Of a stretch of 64,000 nucleotides of DNA, positions 6,144 to 20,306 are shown one piece after another. The translations under genes and the position numbers were made by a program. The notes under the pieces are model-generated. The model saw only the letters and a program-made list of their open reading frames with translations, made no database searches and was not told the origin of the DNA. Origin of the DNA: an uncultured Clostridia bacterium (GTDB lineage Bacteria > Bacillota > Clostridia > TANB77 > CAG-508); contig CARPYP010000010.1 in the NCBI GenBank assembly GCA_949045875.1, positions 1,156 to 65,155 on the forward strand. Direction: 5' to 3'. Each line of letters opens with the position of its first letter. Positions within the stretch are counted from its first letter, which is position 1.

Positions 6144-6527
6144 TCACTTTTCAAATTGTTCTATGCTTCTAAATTCATAACCCATATTTTTTATCTCTTT
6201 TATTACGTCTCCTAATATTTCTGAGTTGTCTTTTGAGGTTGAGTGCAGTAGTATTACTGCTCCTGGATGTATATTTGATATTATTTTTTCTTTTCCATAT
6301 TCTGTTCTTCCTTGTTTTGCTTCGTCCCAGTCATCATATGCTAGACTCCACATTACTGTTGTGTATCCTAAGTTGTTTGTTATTGCTAGCGTTCTTTCAC
6401 TATATTCCCCTTTTGGTGGTCTTATGTATCTCATTTCATATCCTGTTTTTTCATATACTGCTGTTTGCAGTTTTACTACTTCCTCTTTTATTTCTTCTTC
6501 TGATAAGTCTGGCATACTATGATGGTT
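6144..6527 (-). pseudogene. Polysaccharide deacetylase (NodB, PdaA/PdaB-like), C-terminal half, separated from its N-terminal half by the ICE
   Basis: The open frame continues upstream of the ATG at 6515 through HHSMPDLS (the GNH-x-HP-DLS region of NodB enzymes) up to the ICE junction at 6528. The C-terminal NodB motifs are present. Confidence 0.8.
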
Positions 6528-6528: not shown

Positions 6529-6615
6529 ACTGTATGTATTTAAGCTATACCGATGACGCTTTTTTGTATTACTTGCTATGATTATATTTCGACATTTTAT
6601 TCTTATAATTTATTA

Positions 6616-8224
6616 CTAAACCTGTGAAAAAGTTAATTCTACTGTGATTTTCTTGTTTTTATCAAACACAACTTTTTTTACTAACTTTTTTAGGATTTCA
6701 TTATCTGGATTTTCTATTTTTAAAAATTCATTTGCTAGTTTTTCCATTTTTTTATATTCACTATTTTTGCCTTTTATTCCTTTATTATTTTTCTTAATTT
6801 CTTCATTGAGCCTATCTATTTCTTGTTGTATTTTTCTCTTTCTTTCGCTCATTATCTCATATAGCTCTTTAAATTTATCTATTGTTATTTGTTTTGTTAC
6901 TTTCTTTTCATATAAGCATTTTATTTCATCTTCCACTTTATTAAGTTCTTTGCTTTTATTTGAAAGCTGGCTTTGAATTTCATTTACTGTGCTTTTTGCT
7001 TTTCTTTGTGCATTATTATATATTGCTTTTAATTCCTTTGAAGTATATTCTATTTTTTTGATTTCCTCCATTATTGTATTTCTTACTGCATTCATTAGTA
7101 TTTTTTCTCCAATAACAACATTATCACATAAACTTCTATAATCTGCTCTTTTCCCACATACTGCACAATTTCCCTCCCAACAAACCTTACCAGATTTTGT
7201 TTTGCTTTTATTGTGTTGAAATCTTGCTTTGTTTCCACACTCTCCACAATATACAAGCTCTTTTAGTGGGTATTCATATTTTTTTCTAGTATCTGTATTA
7301 TATGAGCTTAACTTTTCTTGTACCTTATTCCATAATTCTTTACTAATAATAGGCTCGTGCATATTTTCCTTTATTATATACTCTGATTTTTCTTTCATTT
7401 TTCCTTTTTTTATTTTAGGGCTTATTTGCTCTTTTTTTCCACTTACAACATTTCCTATATATACTTGATTTTTTAGCATACTACCTATTTGTGTCCTTAA
7501 CCATAAATACCTACCATCTGGATTTTTACTGTTTAGATTTTTTCTAGTGCTAGGCATTTTCATATAAATTCCCGGAGGCGTTATATTTCTATTATTTAAT
7601 TCATCTGCAATTTTTATTGTAGACATTCCTTTGTTTGCATACATATCAAATATCTCTTGTACTATATAACTTACATTCTCATCTATTACTAAATGATTTT
7701 TTATTTCTGTATCTTTTTTGTAGCCATAAGGTGCAATTCCTGCTTGATATTCTCCTGCTTTCATTTTCTTTTTCTTTACGCTCTTAATTTTATTTGAAAT
7801 ATCTTGTATATAGTAATCATTAAAGCTTAATTTGAAAGATAAAAATTGTAATCCTCTTGAATCTATTGTGTCTATTCCATCTCCGTATTGCTATATATCG
7901 TATATTCATTTTAGGTAAGTATCTCTCTAAATAATAGCCTGTATCTATATGATCTCTGCCAAATCTTGATAAGTCCTTTGTGATTATGCAATTTACTTTG
8001 CCATTTTCTATATCTTGTATCATTTGCTTAAATCTCGGTCTATCAAAATTTCCTCCTGTATATCCATCATCAACATATTCATCAAACACTTCTAACTCTG
8101 TATTTTTACTAATAAAATTATCAATTATATCTCTTTGATTTTCTACACTTTCACTTTCTTTTTTTCCTCTGTCTTCGTCTGATAGTCTTATATATTTAGC
8201 AACTTTGTACTTTGTTATAATCAT
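6616..8224 (-). pseudogene. Large serine recombinase 1 (resolvase catalytic domain, recombinase domain, Zn-ribbon, coiled-coil), one frameshift
   Basis: The N-terminal ORF 7820..8224 carries the catalytic Ser (YIRLSDED) and the C-terminal ORF is 6616..7764. They are joined by removing one C in ATACGGAGAT (~7875), which gives IAIGDGIDTI.. parallel to recombinase 2. Confidence 0.85.
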
Positions 8225-8226
8225 AT

Positions 8227-9850
8227 TTATACTGCTTTCTCATATTTTTCTTGTTCTTTTATATTTCCGAAAGTTAGTGTAACTGTAATATTTTTATTAC
8301 TATCAAATTCAATTTTTTTTATTAGTTTTGAATATATTTCTTTACTAGGATTTTTCATTTGTAACATATCTTTTGCTAATTTAATCATTTCTATATAGTT
8401 TTTTCCTGTATCTTCTTTTTGTAATTCCATCATTTCCGTTTCTATTTGATGAATCTGCATTAGTAGTTCTTTTTTTTCGCTTTGCAATTTATTATAAATC
8501 ATAGCAAAATCATCTGCTGTTATAAGTTTATGTATTTTATCTTGATATACCTCTTGTGTAGTTTGTTCATTTTCATCAATTTTGTTTTGTATAGCCACTT
8601 TTTGACTCCTTAATATATTAGTTTTACTGTGTACCTTTTCTTCAGCTTTTTTATAGACATTTATTATCTCATCTTCTGTATAAGATATTTGCTCTATTTC
8701 TTCTTTGATTACTTTTTTTACTTCATCTTGTATAAGTTCTTCTGTTATCGGTTTACAAGTGCAACTTTTATTTCTATTTTTATTAGAACATAAGAAAGTT
8801 CTTTGTTCCCATACTTTGCCACTTTTTCTTTCCCCTTTTCTTACTTTATAAGTTGCTTTTCCTCCACATTCTGCACAAAATATAAATTCTTTCAAAGGTA
8901 CTTCATATTTTTGAGTTAATGAATTTTTATGCTTGTTTAGTTTGTCTTGTGCCTTTCTCCAAGTTAGTTCATCAATTATAGGTTCGTGCATATTTTTCAC
9001 AATAATATATTCCTCTCTATGCGTACTTCGTACTTTCTCAACTTTATGGCTTATCTTTTGAAACTTTCTTCCAACTACACTCCCTATATATACTTCATTT
9101 TTCAACATTTTAGCTATTTGTTCACTATGCCATATATAGCCTTTTGGATCTTTACTTTTTCTATTCATACATACTGGTATTTTTAAATATATTGCAGGAG
9201 CTTCAATATTTCTTTCATTTAATTTATCTGCAATCTTTATTGTAGACATTCCATTATATAAATACATATCAAATATTTCTCTAACTATCTGTGCCGAATA
9301 TTCATCAATTACTAAATGATTTTTTATATTGTTGTCCTTTTTATAGCCATAAGGTGCTATTCCTCCTTGAAACTCCCCCTTTTCTATCTTTCTGTTTTTT
9401 ACACTTTTTATCTTATTAGAAATATCTTGTGCATAATAATCATTAAAACTTAATTTAAAAGTCAAAAATTGTAATCCATCTGGATTTATTGTATCAACAT
9501 TATCTCCTATTGCTATATATCTAATATTGTTTGTTGGCAAATATCTTTCTAAATAATAACCTGTGTCTATATGATCTCTACCAAATCTTGATAAGTCCTT
9601 TGTTATAATGCAATTTATTTTTCCATCTTCTATATCTTGCAACATCTTTTTAAATCCGTGGGCGATTAAAGTTTGTTCCAGTATAGCCATCATCAACATA
9701 TTCTTCTACTGATTCTAATTCTTCGTGTTCATTTATATAGCTATCTAATATATCTCTTTGATTTTCTATACTTTCACTTTCTCTATCATCTCCGTCATCT
9801 CTTGATAAACGCATATATTTCGCCACTTTATAATTATTTATTCTTAACAT
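8227..9850 (-). pseudogene. Large serine recombinase 2, one frameshift; its stop lies 2 nt from the start of recombinase 1
   Basis: The N-terminal ORF 9650..9850 (YMRLSRDD) and the C-terminal ORF 8227..9699 are joined by removing one C in CCACGGATTT (~9662). Confidence 0.85.
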
Positions 9851-10571: not shown

Positions 10572-11114
10572 CTATCTGGACTTGTCATTTCGATTTTTTA
10601 ATTCTTTTCTCTTTATATCTCTAGCTAATTTTTCAAAGCCTAATTTTTTAAAAGTTTCTATATAATGATTTCTATCGATACACTCTCCATTAAGAGTAAC
10701 TATATCAATATTTCTCATAAAATTATTTTCAAACAAACTTGTTATTTTTGCCGGATTTCTAAATAATCTTGAAATATCTGTTACTACTATTTGCTTGATT
10801 TTTCCTGCTTTTATATCTTCTATAAGTTTATCTAGTGCCTCTCTGTCTTCAGATAGTCCACTTTTTCTAACATCTATATAATGTACTCTGTTTGTTATAT
10901 TGTGTTTTTTACAATATTCTTCTAGTCTATCTCTTTGAGAATAAATATCTGCATTTACCATATCTCCATCTACTCTATTTGTTCTCATATATAGTGCAAC
11001 AGCTTTTTTCTGCTTTTTGTTTTCTATCTTTTCATCAATATAATAGTCTAATTGCTCAATATTTCCAACTCTCATATACATACCAACATTTCCATTTTTA
11101 CTCACAATTTCCAT
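10572..11114 (-). CDS. Resolvase-domain-only protein (serine recombinase N-terminal fold, probably degenerate)
   Basis: 180 aa. It has the resolvase-like core (ALYMRTNR..QRDRL..VVTDISRLFRN) but a Thr where the catalytic Ser is expected, and no DNA-binding or recombinase domain. Confidence 0.5.
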   Translation of the reverse strand: MEIVSKNGNVGMYMRVGNIEQLDYYIDEKIENKKQKKAVALYMRTNRVDGDMVNADIYSQRDRLEEYCKKHNITNRVHYIDVRKSGLSEDREALDKLIEDIKAGKIKQIVVTDISRLFRNPAKITSLFENNFMRNIDIVTLNGECIDRNHYIETFKKLGFEKLARDIKRKELKNRNDKSR

Positions 11115-11475
11115 AACCGTTCCTTTCTCGTAAATCGGTGGCTATTTTTATAGCATTGTTTACAACTTCTACATATTTTTCTGGTAGTATATCTATTCGG
11201 TGTAATAATCTCTTTTTGTCTATTACTTTAATTTGTTCAGCCATTATTGTAGCCTCATACTTCATTTTACCAAATTTATTTATTCTTATATGGGTAGGAA
11301 TAGCAAATTGATTCTCTATTCTTTTAGTCATAGGAATAATTATTGTGGTTGTGCTATATTTGTTTCCTATATTATTTTGAATGATTAAAACAGGTCTTAT
11401 TCCCCTCTCCTCACTTCCTACTGTATTTCCTAAATTAGCAAGATATATTTCATTTCTTCTAATTTTATTTATCAT
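11098..11475 (-). CDS. mazF: MazF/PemK-family mRNA interferase toxin
   Basis: 125 aa. RNEIYLANLGNTVGSEERGIRPVLIIQNNIGNKYSTTTIIIPMT matches the MazF/PemK signature. Confidence 0.8.
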   Translation of the reverse strand: MINKIRRNEIYLANLGNTVGSEERGIRPVLIIQNNIGNKYSTTTIIIPMTKRIENQFAIPTHIRINKFGKMKYEATIMAEQIKVIDKKRLLHRIDILPEKYVEVVNNAIKIATDLRERNGYGNCE

Positions 11476-11632
11476 TGTTTTGCCTCCTGCAATTATTTTT
11501 TACTTGTTCCATCTGTTCTATATCTTCCATTTCTATTTCTTCAGCTGTTTTGCATTTACTTGCACCTAACAGTAATAAATACATAAAAATAGCAATTATA
11601 AACATATCTATTAGTAAAATTCTTAATATCAT
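11465..11632 (-). CDS. Small hydrophobic ORF overlapping the mazF start (putative cognate partner)
   Basis: 55 aa, MILRILLIDMFIIAIFMYLLLLGASKCKTAEEIEMEDIEQMEQVKNNCRRQNNDK. Its stop overlaps the mazF ATG, and an AGGAGG lies inside its 3' end. It is not MazE-like. Confidence 0.3.
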   Translation of the reverse strand: MILRILLIDMFIIAIFMYLLLLGASKCKTAEEIEMEDIEQMEQVKNNCRRQNNDK

Positions 11633-12111: not shown

Positions 12112-12324
12112 TTATTTTGCTAATTTTTCTGCAAAATCTTTGTCTTTTATAATTCTTACTGCGTACTCAATTAAATAGCTTTTTAGCTCTTGATCTACTT
12201 CCTTATTTTCATTTTTAGAATATTTATCTATTAGAGGCATTATTTTATCTATTACAAAAATCAATGACACCTCATCTGTTCTAGCCTTTACTAATAATTT
12301 ATAAAATTTTGTTTTATTCTTCAT
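12112..12324 (-). CDS. Small helix-turn-helix protein paired with the sigma factor (Tn916 orf8-like position)
   Basis: 70 aa. It overlaps the upstream sigma gene by 11 nt. Confidence 0.45.
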   Translation of the reverse strand: MKNKTKFYKLLVKARTDEVSLIFVIDKIMPLIDKYSKNENKEVDQELKSYLIEYAVRIIKDKDFAEKLAK

Positions 12325-12751
12325 TCTTTACCTCCAAATAATTTCTTAATTTTTCAATAGCTCTATCTTTTAATTTTCTTACTGCACTCTCATCTTTGTT
12401 CATATCTTTTGCTATTTCTTTCAATTTCTTATTTTTGTAGTAATACTGTATGATTACCTTTCTCTGTTTTTCAGTTAGTTTCCTCATTGCTTTTGATAGT
12501 TGTTCATTTTTACAGTTTTTTTCACTCAAAAAGGAATAATCAAAATTGTCTGTATTATACAAATTTTCCCATTCCTCATTAGACATAGATATTTCTTTAT
12601 CTAGTAAATATTTCTTGTGTTTTAAATAATCAATTCTTTTATGTAATAAAGCTGTTCTTATATAACTTATATATCTAGCAAATACAATATCGTTTTTAAA
12701 TTCTATGTTTTCTTTAAATATATCTCTTTTTTCTTTCATCATTTCCTCCAT
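12314..12751 (-). CDS. Sigma-70 family (ECF-like, regions 2 and 4) RNA polymerase sigma factor of a conjugative element
   Basis: 145 aa. The C-terminal region-4 HTH (LTEKQRKVIIQYYYKNKKLKEIAKDMNKDESAVRKLKDRAIEKLR) is typical. Confidence 0.7.
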   Translation of the reverse strand: MEEMMKEKRDIFKENIEFKNDIVFARYISYIRTALLHKRIDYLKHKKYLLDKEISMSNEEWENLYNTDNFDYSFLSEKNCKNEQLSKAMRKLTEKQRKVIIQYYYKNKKLKEIAKDMNKDESAVRKLKDRAIEKLRNYLEVKNEE

Positions 12752-13201
12752 TCAATTTTGTTTTTTATTGAATGAAGGTGGACTATGACAGCCACAATTA
12801 AAAAGAAGAATAATTTTTATATGTAATATAAAAAAGAAGTCAAAATTACTCCCTGTAAATTTGACTTCTTTTTTTATGTAATTATTTAAAAAAACTTCTT
12901 CCTCTGTTTCCACTACCCATACTCCTTGCATAGCGTAGAGTATGTACTTTGAAATTATAGTAATAAGCAATAGAACAACACTACGCTAAAATATAATCTC
13001 GTTTCTCTTTTCTTTAGATAATCTGGTATTTAGGTAGCACATTTATTTGGATTATCTTTTAAAAATAACAAAAAACAAATATTATTTTTTTATAACTTGC
13101 TTTTTGAATCTATCTTTAATTTACAATCCGTTTTATCTCCTTCCCTTTTATACTATCTTTTGTGCTTATATTTCTTATATTAGCACTTTTTATTTTAAAA
13201 G

Positions 13202-13216
13202 TTTGTCGAAATGTGT
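13202..13216. promoter_or_regulatory. 15-nt motif TTTGTCGAAATGTGT (contains a Spo0A-box TGTCGAA), copy 1, upstream of the XRE gene at 13376
   Basis: Exact 15-mer repeated at 14492..14506. Read directly. Confidence 0.45.
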
Positions 13217-13295
13217 AATATAGTAAATATTTTTTACAAAAATTCCCATTTTATTTTGTATATTTACATTTTCTAATTTTTATAAATTGTTTTTA

Positions 13296-13310
13296 GCACG
13301 ATATTCGTGC
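13296..13310. promoter_or_regulatory. Operator palindrome GCACGATATTCGTGC, copy 1, in the XRE promoter region
   Basis: Perfect 15-bp palindrome, ~65 nt upstream of the ATG at 13376 and just upstream of a TATAAT-like box. Confidence 0.55.
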
Positions 13311-13375
13311 AAGGAAATGATTTTTTTATAATAAAATTGGGAAAAATGTATATAGAATGAAAGGAATGATGGTAT

Positions 13376-13633
13376 ATGAGAGCCAAAAGACTTAATTCAA
13401 AATCTAATATTATTGGCAAAAATGTAAAAAAATATAGAACTGCCAATAAATATACCCAAGAAGAATTATGCCAAAAGCTAGACTTGTTTGGTTTGAACTT
13501 ATATCATTCTGATATTTATCTTATTGAATATAATAAAAGAATTGTTAGAGATTATGAAGCTCTTGCTTTTGCTAAAGTCTTTAATATAAGTTTAGACGAA
13601 CTTTATTCTGGAACAGAAAAAGAACTTGAATAA
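13376..13633 (+). CDS. XRE-family HTH transcriptional regulator
   Basis: 85 aa. The HTH_3 region (YRTANKYTQEELCQKLDL) is present and the RBS is GGAATGATGG. Confidence 0.8.
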   Translation: MRAKRLNSKSNIIGKNVKKYRTANKYTQEELCQKLDLFGLNLYHSDIYLIEYNKRIVRDYEALAFAKVFNISLDELYSGTEKELE

Positions 13634-13637
13634 AAAA

Positions 13638-13668
13638 TTAAATCCAGTTTTCTCTGGATTTTTTATTA
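13638..13668. terminator. Bidirectional terminator hairpin AAATCCAG-TTTTCTC-CTGGATTT with flanking T/A runs
   Basis: Lies between the convergent genes at 13376..13633 (+) and 13666..14139 (-). Confidence 0.5.
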
Positions 13669-14139
13669 TTTTTTGAAAAAATTTACTATTTTCTTTAAAA
13701 CATTACTTTCTTCAGTTAGTTTACTCTCAATTGTTTCTTCTCTACTTTCTATTTCTGTAATTGATTCAATTTCATTAACTAACTTTTCTATATCTACTGG
13801 TTTATTATAGATATTTTTTACAGGCAAAGAATATAGTTTTTTCATTATATCTATACTTGCACCACCAGTAATAACAATAAACTCTGGTATCTTCTCAAAA
13901 TCTTTTACAATTTCTATAACTTCTATCCCTGTTTTTTTAGGCATTTCTATATCAGTGATTACAACATCTGGAGCAAATTGCATTATATGTTTCAATTCTT
14001 TTTCTCCGTCATTTGCAATTCCAACTACCTCTAGTTTATCACTTTCTTTTAATCCTTTTACAATATGTTCTAGTAAAACTTCGTTGTCATCTGCTACAAC
14101 TATTCTTATCATAGTTTTTCCCACCTTTCTTGATTGCAC
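13666..14139 (-). CDS. Stand-alone CheY-superfamily receiver protein resembling the Spo0A N-terminal receiver domain, with no output domain
   Basis: 157 aa. IRIVVADDNEVLLEHIVKGL...EVVGIANDGEKELKHIMQFAPDVVITDIEMPKKTGIEVIE...NKPVDIEKL parallels the Spo0A receiver (VADDN, phospho-Asp in VITDIEMP, KP). The C-terminal 40 aa are acidic and low-complexity. Confidence 0.75.
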   Translation of the reverse strand: MQSRKVGKTMIRIVVADDNEVLLEHIVKGLKESDKLEVVGIANDGEKELKHIMQFAPDVVITDIEMPKKTGIEVIEIVKDFEKIPEFIVITGGASIDIMKKLYSLPVKNIYNKPVDIEKLVNEIESITEIESREETIESKLTEESNVLKKIVNFFKK

Positions 14140-14153
14140 GATATTCGTGCAAT
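14133..14153. promoter_or_regulatory. Operator palindrome ATTGCACGATATTCGTGCAAT, copy 2, overlapping the -10/+1 region of the receiver/AbrB operon
   Basis: 21-bp perfect palindrome. On the minus strand TATAAT abuts it, and it lies ~20 nt upstream of the RBS AAGGTGGG. Confidence 0.55.
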
Positions 14154-14172
14154 TATAAATAAAAAAAATAAT

Positions 14173-14421
14173 TTACTTTGCTAATTTAGATATTTTTCCT
14201 ATACATTTATCACACACTAATTGTCCTTCAATTTTTGTTTGCACTTTTTTACTATTACAAAATACACAGTTTTCTAAATATTTTCTTAATATTATTTTTT
14301 CTCCGTCTACAAATATTTCTAAAGGATCTTGCTCACAAATTTTAAATTGACTTCTAATTTCTTTAGGAATTGTTATTCTTCCTAAATCATCAACTTTTCT
14401 TGTAATTCCTGTACTTTTCAT
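14173..14421 (-). CDS. AbrB/SpoVT-family transition-state regulator paralog with a Cys-rich C-terminus
   Basis: 82 aa. The N-terminal swapped-hairpin MKSTGITRKVDDLGRITIPKEIRSQFKI..DPLEIFVDGEKIILRKY closely parallels AbrB. The C-terminus carries CxxC...CxxC. Confidence 0.8.
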   Translation of the reverse strand: MKSTGITRKVDDLGRITIPKEIRSQFKICEQDPLEIFVDGEKIILRKYLENCVFCNSKKVQTKIEGQLVCDKCIGKISKLAK

Positions 14422-14458
14422 CTAATTATTCTCCTATCTTTATAAACTTTTTTCGTTC

Positions 14459-14506
14459 TTCGACATATTATACCATATCCTCTTTTATCTTTTTGTCGAA
14501 ATGTGT
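14459..14506. promoter_or_regulatory. Upstream region of the AbrB-like gene carrying an inverted (TTCGACA, 14459..14465) and a direct (TGTCGAA, 14494..14500) Spo0A-box, the latter inside the second 15-mer copy
   Basis: Read directly. The arrangement resembles the 0A boxes at B. subtilis abrB. Confidence 0.4.
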
Positions 14507-14662
14507 CATAAAAATAAAAAAACTTCACTCAAGTAAACTATTCTAAATTTTAACATACAAATTACTTTACTGCAATAAATTACTTCGCAAAAGTAAAGTT
14601 TTTTAAAAAACCTTTACTCGAGTAAATTATATTATGCTTGTATCTTGTTATAATTTTTTTGG

Positions 14663-20069: not shown

Positions 20070-20306
20070 ATGTATAAAGTAAAATTAGAAAATGGCTATT
20101 ATCTCTTTAAATTACAAGATTTATTGAAAAGTAGGCATATTAGTATTAACAGATTTATGAAAGATACTGATACAGATTTCAAAGTAATTAAGCGAATAAT
20201 GAAAGGCGATCTAGTAAGATTTGATATTCTTGTACTTGCTCGATTTTGTGATTATCTTAATTGCACTTTAAATGATATAATTGAATATGTGCCAAACAAC
20301 AAATAA
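20070..20306 (+). CDS. XRE/Cro-like HTH regulator
   Basis: 78 aa with an HTH-like core. Confidence 0.6.
   Translation: MYKVKLENGYYLFKLQDLLKSRHISINRFMKDTDTDFKVIKRIMKGDLVRFDILVLARFCDYLNCTLNDIIEYVPNNK

Follow-up and report, generated by a model that had tools for sequence, protein, structure and literature searches.

The promoter Porf7 of Tn916 drives the regulatory and recombination genes of that element and, after excision, its transfer genes (PMC11658703). The phages phi29 and Nf were found to embed host Spo0A sites in their own control regions, coupling their life cycle to sporulation (PMC2731898), and development that depends on Spo0A is inhibited by the DevI protein of ICEBs1 (PMC8032392). 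Homologs of abrB, and Spo0A homologs consisting only of the effector, are found in gut phages (PMC10294663), and sporulation genes are split by the mobile elements skin, SPbeta, gin and yin, which have large serine recombinase(s) (PMC4191935, PMC5595907, PMC10747680). The present analysis concerns a stretch of 64,000 nucleotides (the window) of AT-rich DNA from an uncultured gut Clostridium, and within it the regulatory module of an integrative conjugative element (ICE) of about 48 kb that interrupts the sporulation gene pdaA. The module was found to contain two promoters, P1 and P2, each with an exact match to the 0A box of the sporulation regulator Spo0A; an AbrB paralog and a stand-alone receiver are encoded behind P1 and a sigma-like protein behind P2. 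The same promoter composite was found at two fixed places in 12 distinct elements. Gene identities, motifs, positions and conservation were read directly, and from the sequence we infer which proteins bind the boxes and operators and what role the receiver has.

Comparison with described systems

The locus resembles Tn916 in gene order and in its XRE and sigma region-4 genes: behind a reverse-oriented XRE gene come the sigma region-4 gene, a small gene overlapping it and the recombination genes. P2 is the positional equivalent of Porf7, heading the operon that leads to excision (PMC11658703), and a structured leader with a terminator-like hairpin is also common to both. In contrast to Tn916, the ICE contained a PF03432 relaxase, VirD4/TraG, PrgI, a sortase and a SpaA adhesin, a conjugation module that is not Tn916-like. 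Serine recombinases were found in place of Int/Xis, abrB and the receiver in the slot that holds tetM in Tn916, and 0A boxes in the promoters. A conjugation and DNA-processing module of the Tn916 type together with Int/Xis was thus not found in this ICE.

The boxes contained the same TGTCGAA consensus core as the Spo0A-activated sigma-A promoters (spoIIG, spoIIE) and abrB, whereas here the putative boxes lie on a mobile element and have a degenerate upstream box. As in phi29 and Nf, a mobile element carries 0A boxes in its control regions; there Spo0A represses the phage promoters and replication, whereas in the present case activation is implied by the position of the box, and the carrier is an ICE with genes for a receiver and AbrB as well. 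The receiver is unrelated in sequence to DevI of ICEBs1. The Spo0A fragments of gut phages represent the DNA-binding half of the protein, whereas this element carries the complementary receiver-like half, which is distantly Spo0A-like. Serine recombinases and a split sporulation gene are shared with the intervening elements, with the difference that here a full ICE is inserted and the target is the forespore gene pdaA. To our knowledge, the targets of the known sporulation intervening elements are mother-cell genes.

XRE/sigma modules, the use of 0A boxes, Spo0A fragments and abrB on mobile elements, the splitting of sporulation genes and the manipulation of Spo0A are each already known singly. 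Their combination, namely an ICE master promoter on a conserved 0A box with the receiver family, an AbrB paralog and insertion in a forespore gene, was not found described in the literature. If phosphorylated Spo0A (Spo0A~P) of the host does drive P1 and P2, this element would be the first of its kind, an ICE with a master promoter under the direct control of the master regulator of sporulation. Such control would connect horizontal gene transfer in gut Clostridia, organisms that are transmitted between hosts as spores, with their decision to sporulate in a concrete way that is open to experiment. The idea of the intervening element would also extend to a forespore-expressed gene, which raises the question of the element's germ-line retention, and an uncharacterised receiver family (REC domain plus basic amphipathic tail) gains functional context from the module. 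The interest is real but moderate, since all functional steps are inferred, in hosts that have not been cultured.

Promoters P1 and P2

An earlier note on this DNA had reported an exact 15-mer, TTTGTCGAAATGTGT, in two copies, and both were recovered at 13202-13216 and 14492-14506 on the + strand. The 13202 copy, which had been assigned to the divergent XRE gene, was found instead to be oriented and spaced as part of a minus-strand promoter toward the sigma gene. The 15-mer is therefore described here as the candidate activator box of two co-directional minus-strand promoters, P1 and P2 (Table 1). Both were found to contain a degenerate half-box followed by 3 bp, TTCGACA, a 22-bp spacer counted from TTCGAC, and TAnnAT, with no -35; in P2 no -35 hexamer was found at the normal distance. 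The match to the 0A box was exact at 7 of 7 positions in both promoters. Seven TGTCGAA boxes were found in the window against 2.04 expected, and none of 100 dinucleotide shuffles reached seven, which overturns the earlier estimate that the box is not enriched (5-6 expected). The two boxes TTCGACA and TGTCGAA that had been reported in the leader do both lie upstream of abrB, but the second was not conserved in L014, L015 and L016.

Relatives of the module were collected as 12 distinct elements, with receivers 56-100% identical in the 10 loci measured; on the family profile L183 reached 171 bits, and an HTH_3 gene led to L185. Their integrases were of the serine or tyrosine type and their cargo differed, and the same regulatory module was present in elements integrated elsewhere (L007, L089, L091). 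The composite TTCGACA, 20-22 nt and TAnnAT, often preceded by TGn, was conserved at the two fixed places in the 12 elements, with diverging spacer sequences. Except in L093, the P1 composite precedes the receiver operon in all family loci in which the region is available, the loci without abrB included, where it adjoins the receiver directly; its box and -10 were invariant in 7 loci. The P2 composite was found about 900 nt past the receiver start in 9 loci and also in L183 and L185, with the TGn extended -10 kept. A half-box T(T/A)nnACA, matching at 4-5 of 7 positions, was present 3 bp upstream of the box in most instances. Eighty unrelated loci (518 kb) contained no composites and 0.06 boxes per kb, and a second control of about 770 kb of other loci contained 4 composites. 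A metagenome scan yielded only distant receivers (at most 42% identity) and was used solely as a negative control. The 15-mer with its 0A box thus stands as a conserved promoter element, with two parallel activator-type promoters in place of the wiring that had been proposed for it.

The box was retained in loci without abrB, HTH_26 or a nearby HTH_3, so that none of these is an obligate partner. In L185 both boxes were kept, with no recognisable sigma gene (ORFs, open reading frames, of 51 and 98 aa were found in its place), and together these losses favour a host factor. In B. subtilis, Spo0A has tandem boxes 3 bp apart at abrB, and at spoIIG and spoIIE the box overlaps the -35 region of sigma-A promoters that have an over-long spacer of about 22 bp. 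The TGTCGAA core is bound by Spo0A of C. difficile (PMC3485338).

In L183 and L184, the promoters P1 and P2, the receiver, the inverted repeat described below and HTH_3 were kept, and the slot of HTH_26 was found to contain an XRE gene followed by a full-length Spo0A paralog of 239 aa (6509-7228 in L183). This paralog contained a REC domain and Spo0A_C (44 bits, cut-off 25), with 24-28% full-length identity to genuine Spo0As, and is co-oriented with the XRE gene and divergent from the P1-type promoter. It ties the module to Spo0A-type regulation. No match to it was found by tblastn in phage and plasmid collections.

The explanation that we favour, at even odds, is activation of P1 and P2 by host Spo0A~P under the gating of two XRE repressors. 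P1 and P2 would then be sigma-A-type promoters without a -35, with the Spo0A box near -40 and a degenerate second box 3 bp upstream, and the region of 12.1-14.9 kb would be the master regulatory switch of the whole ICE. From P2 the sigma-like and orf8-like regulators, PemK and the serine recombinases would be transcribed, which would make it the entry point for excision and, once the element is circularised, probably for transfer. P1 would transcribe the AbrB paralog and the stand-alone phospho-receiver. The element would probably time its activity by the decision of its host to sporulate.

Several observations weigh against activation by Spo0A. An alternative P1, TCGACA-16-TATAGT, which would need no activator, can be read in 7 of 9 loci. 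The 3 nt beside the box were the same variant (CAT or AGT) at P1 and P2 within several elements, a pattern compatible with gene conversion or with a binder specific to the element. The recognition helix of the L183 paralog has diverged, so that it may not read canonical boxes. In the relatives L179-L182, with HTH_3 proteins 71-73% identical, the receiver slot was occupied by unrelated two-component cargo and no boxes were found. The hosts are uncultured metagenome-assembled genomes (MAGs), and the box orientation relative to transcription and the 22-bp, spoIIG-like spacing serve as a lead more than as a test.

Some of these points speak at the same time for an element-autonomous switch, the main rival, which we regard as possible but doubtful. 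The box TTACAnnnTTCGACA would here be read by a factor of the element (either the sigma-like orf7 protein together with orf8 or some other small protein) in positive autoregulation as proposed for Tn916 Porf7, the 0A match would be coincidental or convergent, and the receiver would be an internal relay fed by a non-sporulation host kinase. The flanking variant that P1 and P2 often share within one element and the lack of boxes in HTH_3 relatives without the receiver would agree with this, as would the sigma region-4 gene directly downstream of P2 in most loci and a conserved motif that exceeds the 7-bp core. However, the -10 elements were sigma-A-like with TGn extensions and not of the ECF (extracytoplasmic function) type, L185 keeps its boxes, as described, with the sigma gene gone, and only 2 chance occurrences of the perfect 7/7 box are expected per 64 kb. 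The 22-bp gap from TTCGAC also fits the -35 of no sigma factor known to us.

Table 1. Positions of the module features and of the interrupted pdaA gene in the window
Feature	Position	Strand	Basis and remarks
pdaA part 2	6144..6515		TIGR02884 profile positions 102-222
orf8-like gene, 70 aa, overlapping the sigma gene	12112..12324	-	Position; no family match in profile searches
Sigma-70 region-4 protein (orf7-like)	12314..12742	-	PF04545 48.5 bits, TIGR02937 55.7 bits; recombinase genes downstream
Terminator-like hairpin in leader	12836..12868	-	Hairpin then T-run, read from sequence
P2 (sigma/orf8/PemK/recombinase operon)	13177..13220	-	Half-box TATTACA 13214-13220, TTCGACA 13204-13210, extended -10 TGCTAATAT 13177-13185
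Inverted repeat copy 1 and HTH_3 promoter	13296..13332	+	Repeat 13296-13310 over putative -35 TTCGTG; -10 TATAAT 13327-13332, 17 bp downstream
HTH_3 XRE repressor gene, 85 aa	13376..13633	+	PF01381; positional equivalent of Tn916 orf9
Bidirectional intrinsic terminator	13640..13661	.	Predicted; common to receiver operon and HTH_3 gene
Receiver gene, 148 aa	13666..14112	-	PF00072 63 bits; REC domain 1-118, disordered linker, basic amphipathic C-terminal helix
Inverted repeat copy 2, ATTGCACGA-TAT-TCGTGCAAT	14133..14153	.	abrB-receiver intergenic, just 5' of receiver ribosome-binding site
AbrB paralog, 82 aa	14173..14421	-	Swapped-hairpin N-domain and CxxC-x15-CxxC tail
Second TGTCGAA, overlapping P1 start site	14459..14465	-	Close relatives only
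P1 (abrB and receiver)	14467..14510	-	Half-box TATGACA 14504-14510, TTCGACA 14494-14500, -10 TATAAT 14467-14472
Three inverted-repeat operators TTTACT-N2/6-AGTAAA	14523-14537, 14580-14597, 14613-14626	.	Between HTH_26 and P1
HTH_26 (Cro/C1-type XRE) repressor gene, 78 aa	14672..14908	+	PF13443 45.6 bits; divergent from P1
pdaA part 1	54580..55002		TIGR02884 profile positions 2-95

Repressors and operators

The default off state would be set by the two XRE repressors encoded by the element. The HTH_26 protein was also called as 78 aa in identical contigs and was 74-96% identical in relatives. The TTTACT-N2/6-AGTAAA repeats were conserved in the alignment and present only in loci that carry HTH_26; they were absent in L091, which has no HTH_26. 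They are likely the binding sites of HTH_26, which would act there, next to P1.

The HTH_3 protein was found to be 86-100% identical across loci whose receivers are 56-88% identical, and belongs to a large metagenomic family. The repeat GCACGATATTCGTGC, described earlier as a perfect palindrome, was found in its two copies (13296-13310 and 14136-14150), but its reverse complement differs at 3 positions. It is an inverted repeat of 6+3+6, GCACGA-N3-TCGTGC, that grows to 9+3+9 in copy 2 only. By chance 0.19 matches with at most 3 mismatches are expected, and none of 100 shuffles reached 4. Copy 1 and the TATAAT that follows it were conserved upstream of HTH_3, with the repeat exact in 7 loci and variants in L015 and L016, and the overlap with the putative -35 was seen in all loci that have HTH_3. 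Copy 2 was exact or one change off, 16-24 nt upstream of the receiver ATG, in 11 of 11 loci; it lies inside the abrB-receiver transcript and not, as had been claimed for both copies, at a promoter. An internal promoter before the receiver was considered and rejected, the TATAAT beside copy 2 not being conserved. Most simply, the inverted repeat would be the operator of the HTH_3 repressor, which would act at two places, across its own -35 and just before the receiver RBS (ribosome-binding site). Since no predicted transcript includes copy 1, a DNA operator is the simplest reading, and Rfam on 11.4-15.1 kb returned only a spurious sub-threshold miRNA match, the repeat not being found as a known RNA element.

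The receiver slot is plastic, because L179-L182 hold unrelated two-component cargo in it. In these loci the slot was found to contain OmpR-type proteins of 125-137 aa that are effector-only (Trans_reg_C) and, as a protein of its own, a receiver of 123 aa; the neighbouring genes are van-like (VanY, alanine racemase, acyltransferase). Split two-component parts appear to gather repeatedly in this slot next to HTH_3. A second HTH_26-like XRE gene of 78 aa was found at 20070..20306 (+), at the border of the conjugation genes and the cargo, and is also present in L002, L003, L005 and L008.

The stand-alone receiver

The ORF 13666..14139 of the earlier note is the maximal GTG ORF; its reading as a receiver holds, whereas the real start is the ATG at 14112, which follows the RBS AAAGGTGGG and gives 148 aa. 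The 148-aa protein was found to be identical to the database protein P0001, and every homolog begins with MI(R/K)IVVADDN. The residues D8, D9, D54, T82 and K104 were invariant or nearly so across the family and the acid pocket was intact. In the AlphaFold (AF2) model, the confidence (pLDDT) was 86.9, with values above 93 over residues 1-118, which adopt the REC fold, followed by a helix at 123-147. With the REC fold, the acid pocket, the conserved Asp, Thr/Ser and Lys and no output domain, the protein has the features of a single-domain response regulator. Only PF00072 was found and a C-terminal helix of 30 aa ends the protein, which bears out the earlier description of a receiver without an effector domain.

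The receiver is probably phosphorylatable. Neither a histidine kinase nor a Spo0A_C domain was found in the annotated part of the ICE genes, and because no histidine kinase was found in the element, the donor must be a host kinase or acetyl phosphate. A hidden Spo0A_C domain was considered for the HTH_60 protein and for other ICE proteins and rejected, Pfam giving no support.

The receiver was found to belong to a distinct family of stand-alone receivers of 147-165 aa, with some tandem-receiver versions, whose hallmark is the basic amphipathic C-terminal helix (hydrophobic moment 0.6-0.99 in most members, net charge +2 to +7). The helix is not docked on the REC domain in the AF2 model; it could be membrane-targeting or partner-binding, and as a family-specific tail it suggests a partner or location of the family's own. 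The tail comprises residues 123-147 (13666..13740), and all members P0049-P0130 end likewise, e.g. LFRKIKQFFNK. The membrane-targeting sequences of MinD used for comparison scored low in hydrophobic moment, which made the comparison with the tail uninformative.

The likeness to the Spo0A N-terminal domain that had been proposed earlier was partly upheld by the profile and structure comparisons. Spo0A was the best characterised match in five of them but never a decisive one, with about 30% identity and a tie with DesR. On NCBIfam the receiver scored 67.1 bits against TIGR02875 (Spo0A), covering profile positions 3-140 but below the equivalog cut-off of 200, and this family ranked first, followed by the next at 53 bits. 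The sequence search of PDB gave Spo0A at 1.6e-14 versus DesR at 2.9e-11. In the family-wide search Spo0A was matched at 1e-13 by 25 of 27 receiver members versus 14 for the next families. Per-domain profile scores were 68-86 bits for most genuine Spo0A receivers, 57 for two from Peptostreptococcaceae and at most 75 for others; this ranking was taken from per-domain re-scoring, the whole-protein ranking of the exhaustive profile search being swamped by multi-receiver proteins. Foldseek placed Spo0A at rank 1, tied with DesR, with identities of about 30% and 35%, respectively. The C-terminal Spo0A_C DNA-binding domain that marks the Spo0A family was not found in the receiver, and the motifs quoted earlier as diagnostic of Spo0A, except DDN, are common to NarL- and CheB-type receivers. 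A derivation of the receiver family from the L183 Spo0A paralog was also considered and rejected, the REC domain of the paralog scoring 43 bits against 74-86 for most genuine Spo0As.

On these data a decoy is speculative and unlikely: the receiver would mimic the REC domain of Spo0A, drain phosphoryl groups from the sporulation kinases of the host or poison Spo0A dimers and, together with AbrB, hold the host at the transition state. The top rank of Spo0A among characterised matches in every comparison (PDB, NCBIfam, family-wide, per-domain, Foldseek) points this way, as do the invariant, Spo0A-typical DDN and the intact catalytic residues with no cognate kinase gene found in the annotated ICE parts. 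In Clostridia, Spo0A receives its phosphate directly from orphan kinases (PMC11210211), and DevI of ICEBs1 is a precedent for an inhibitor of Spo0A-dependent development (PMC8032392). Against it, the margins are small, DesR being tied in the fold search and more identical, and the curated libraries hold few other Firmicute receivers, so that the top rank of Spo0A may be a taxonomic bias. The switch position is occupied by Ile and not by an aromatic residue. Kinase specificity is usually set by the residues of helix 1, and in the alignment of the PDB search those of the receiver had no visible match to Spo0A. The conserved tail, with the separate partner or location that it suggests, and the loci that lack abrB also count against a decoy.

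The decoy is compatible with the activation of P1 and P2 by host Spo0A~P, as its downstream half; a Spo0A-like acceptor made from a Spo0A-dependent promoter would, if true, form a negative feedback. In the favoured explanation, the receiver and AbrB would be feedback devices on the transition-state and sporulation signalling of the host, or internal relays to the element's own regulators. The fullest version of this scheme is speculative and, in our estimate, quite improbable. It describes a widespread family of ICEs of gut Clostridia in which host Spo0A~P would trigger the master promoter, with excision from pdaA and transfer at the onset of sporulation. A Spo0A-like acceptor, possibly membrane-tethered by its amphipathic tail, and AbrB, both from a second Spo0A~P-dependent promoter, would act back on the sporulation decision of the host and keep the cell at stage 0 during the movement of the element, and some relatives would have gained their own Spo0A paralog.

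The AbrB paralog

The identification of the 82-aa protein as an AbrB paralog was confirmed and it was found to be a genuine AbrB of the clostridial type. Its N-domain matched AbrB-N of B. subtilis (2k1n/1z0r) at an E value of 1e-15, with about two-thirds identity over 51-52 aa as counted from the alignment, and scored 47.8 bits on TIGR01439 (cut-off 28.3), which places it among the looped-hinge helix DNA-binding domains. The full-length protein was 55-65% identical over 98-100% of its length to AbrBs of about 80 aa from Clostridia, Halanaerobium and Paenibacillus, and the same CxxC..CxxC tail was found in these chromosomal proteins. Co-transcription of abrB with the receiver also agrees with the map, in which the two genes follow one another on the - strand across a gap of 60 nt that has no predicted terminator. 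The abrB gene was absent from L091, L095, L015 and L183, and AbrB is therefore dispensable for the module.

The best Pfam name of the protein was MazE_antitoxin, and PHROG 4681 is annotated as an antitoxin. With the PemK gene present at 11098..11475, these labels would allow the 82-aa protein to be a MazE-type antitoxin for PemK and the receiver to be accessory cargo that has no role in the control of the element, and the slot next to HTH_3 does hold cargo-type regulators in some relatives. This explanation is very improbable. The AbrB-N match and the full-length identity to chromosomal transition-state regulators speak against the antitoxin, and PemK lies 2.7 kb away, behind another promoter and with a small upstream ORF of its own. 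The receiver, the repeat upstream of it, P1 and HTH_3 stay together across elements with different cargo and integrases, which speaks against a receiver that is mere cargo.

The sigma operon and its leader

Between P2 and the sigma gene, a leader of about 400 nt (12745-13165) was found to be strongly structured (fold z = -7.1), and no Rfam match was found for it. The structured leader with its hairpin suggests control by attenuation or antitermination, as in Tn916. Further down the operon, an ORF of 55 aa at 11465..11632 precedes and overlaps the PemK/MazF toxin gene, and the pair is kept with the module in relatives; the 55-aa ORF may be the PemK antitoxin. A small resolvase of 180 aa was found at 10572..11114, and the region 6616..9699 was found to contain a large serine recombinase of 490 aa followed by a 134-aa ORF with the resolvase N-domain and a separate 382-aa ORF with the recombinase and zinc-ribbon domains. 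Because these domains are in separate ORFs, the second serine recombinase of the ICE appears to be split or frameshifted.

The element and its insertion site

The assignment of the module to an ICE was upheld. The ends of the element were placed at roughly 6.55 and 54.55 kb, and its annotated genes include ParA/ParB, a SpaA-type adhesin, a relaxase (PF03432) of the MOBP type, a VirD4/TraG coupling protein and PrgI, followed by a VirB4-like ATPase, a sortase, a CHAP hydrolase, variable cargo, the regulatory module, PemK and several serine recombinases. In phage and plasmid collections, the region of 11.0-16.5 kb had no megablast match. Segments identical to the window were found in MAGs from mouse and human gut that are labelled Clostridia or Clostridiaceae.

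Insertion in a sporulation gene, as the earlier note had stated, was also found: the coding sequence of pdaA (delta-lactam-biosynthetic de-N-acetylase, TIGR02884) is split by the whole ICE, as in an intervening element, and is adjoined by yqfC/yqfD. The insertion site was common to several MAGs (L001, L002, L004-L006). In C. difficile, pdaA is a forespore gene that depends on sigma-G (PMC3789822).

Near the two ends of the ICE, TGTCGAA was found in inverted orientation at 6588-6594 (-) and 54383-54389 (+), inside a common motif GAATAAnnTGTCGAA. The end box after the last recombinase gene was retained throughout the relatives, L007 with its different insertion site among them; the end boxes could be arm sites of the recombinase or further Spo0A sites. 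The host flank past pdaA (55284..59711) was found to contain genes for a HipA-like kinase, an agr-type LytTR regulator and a GHKL histidine kinase, and TGTCGAA boxes were also present in this flank at 57601 and 59824.

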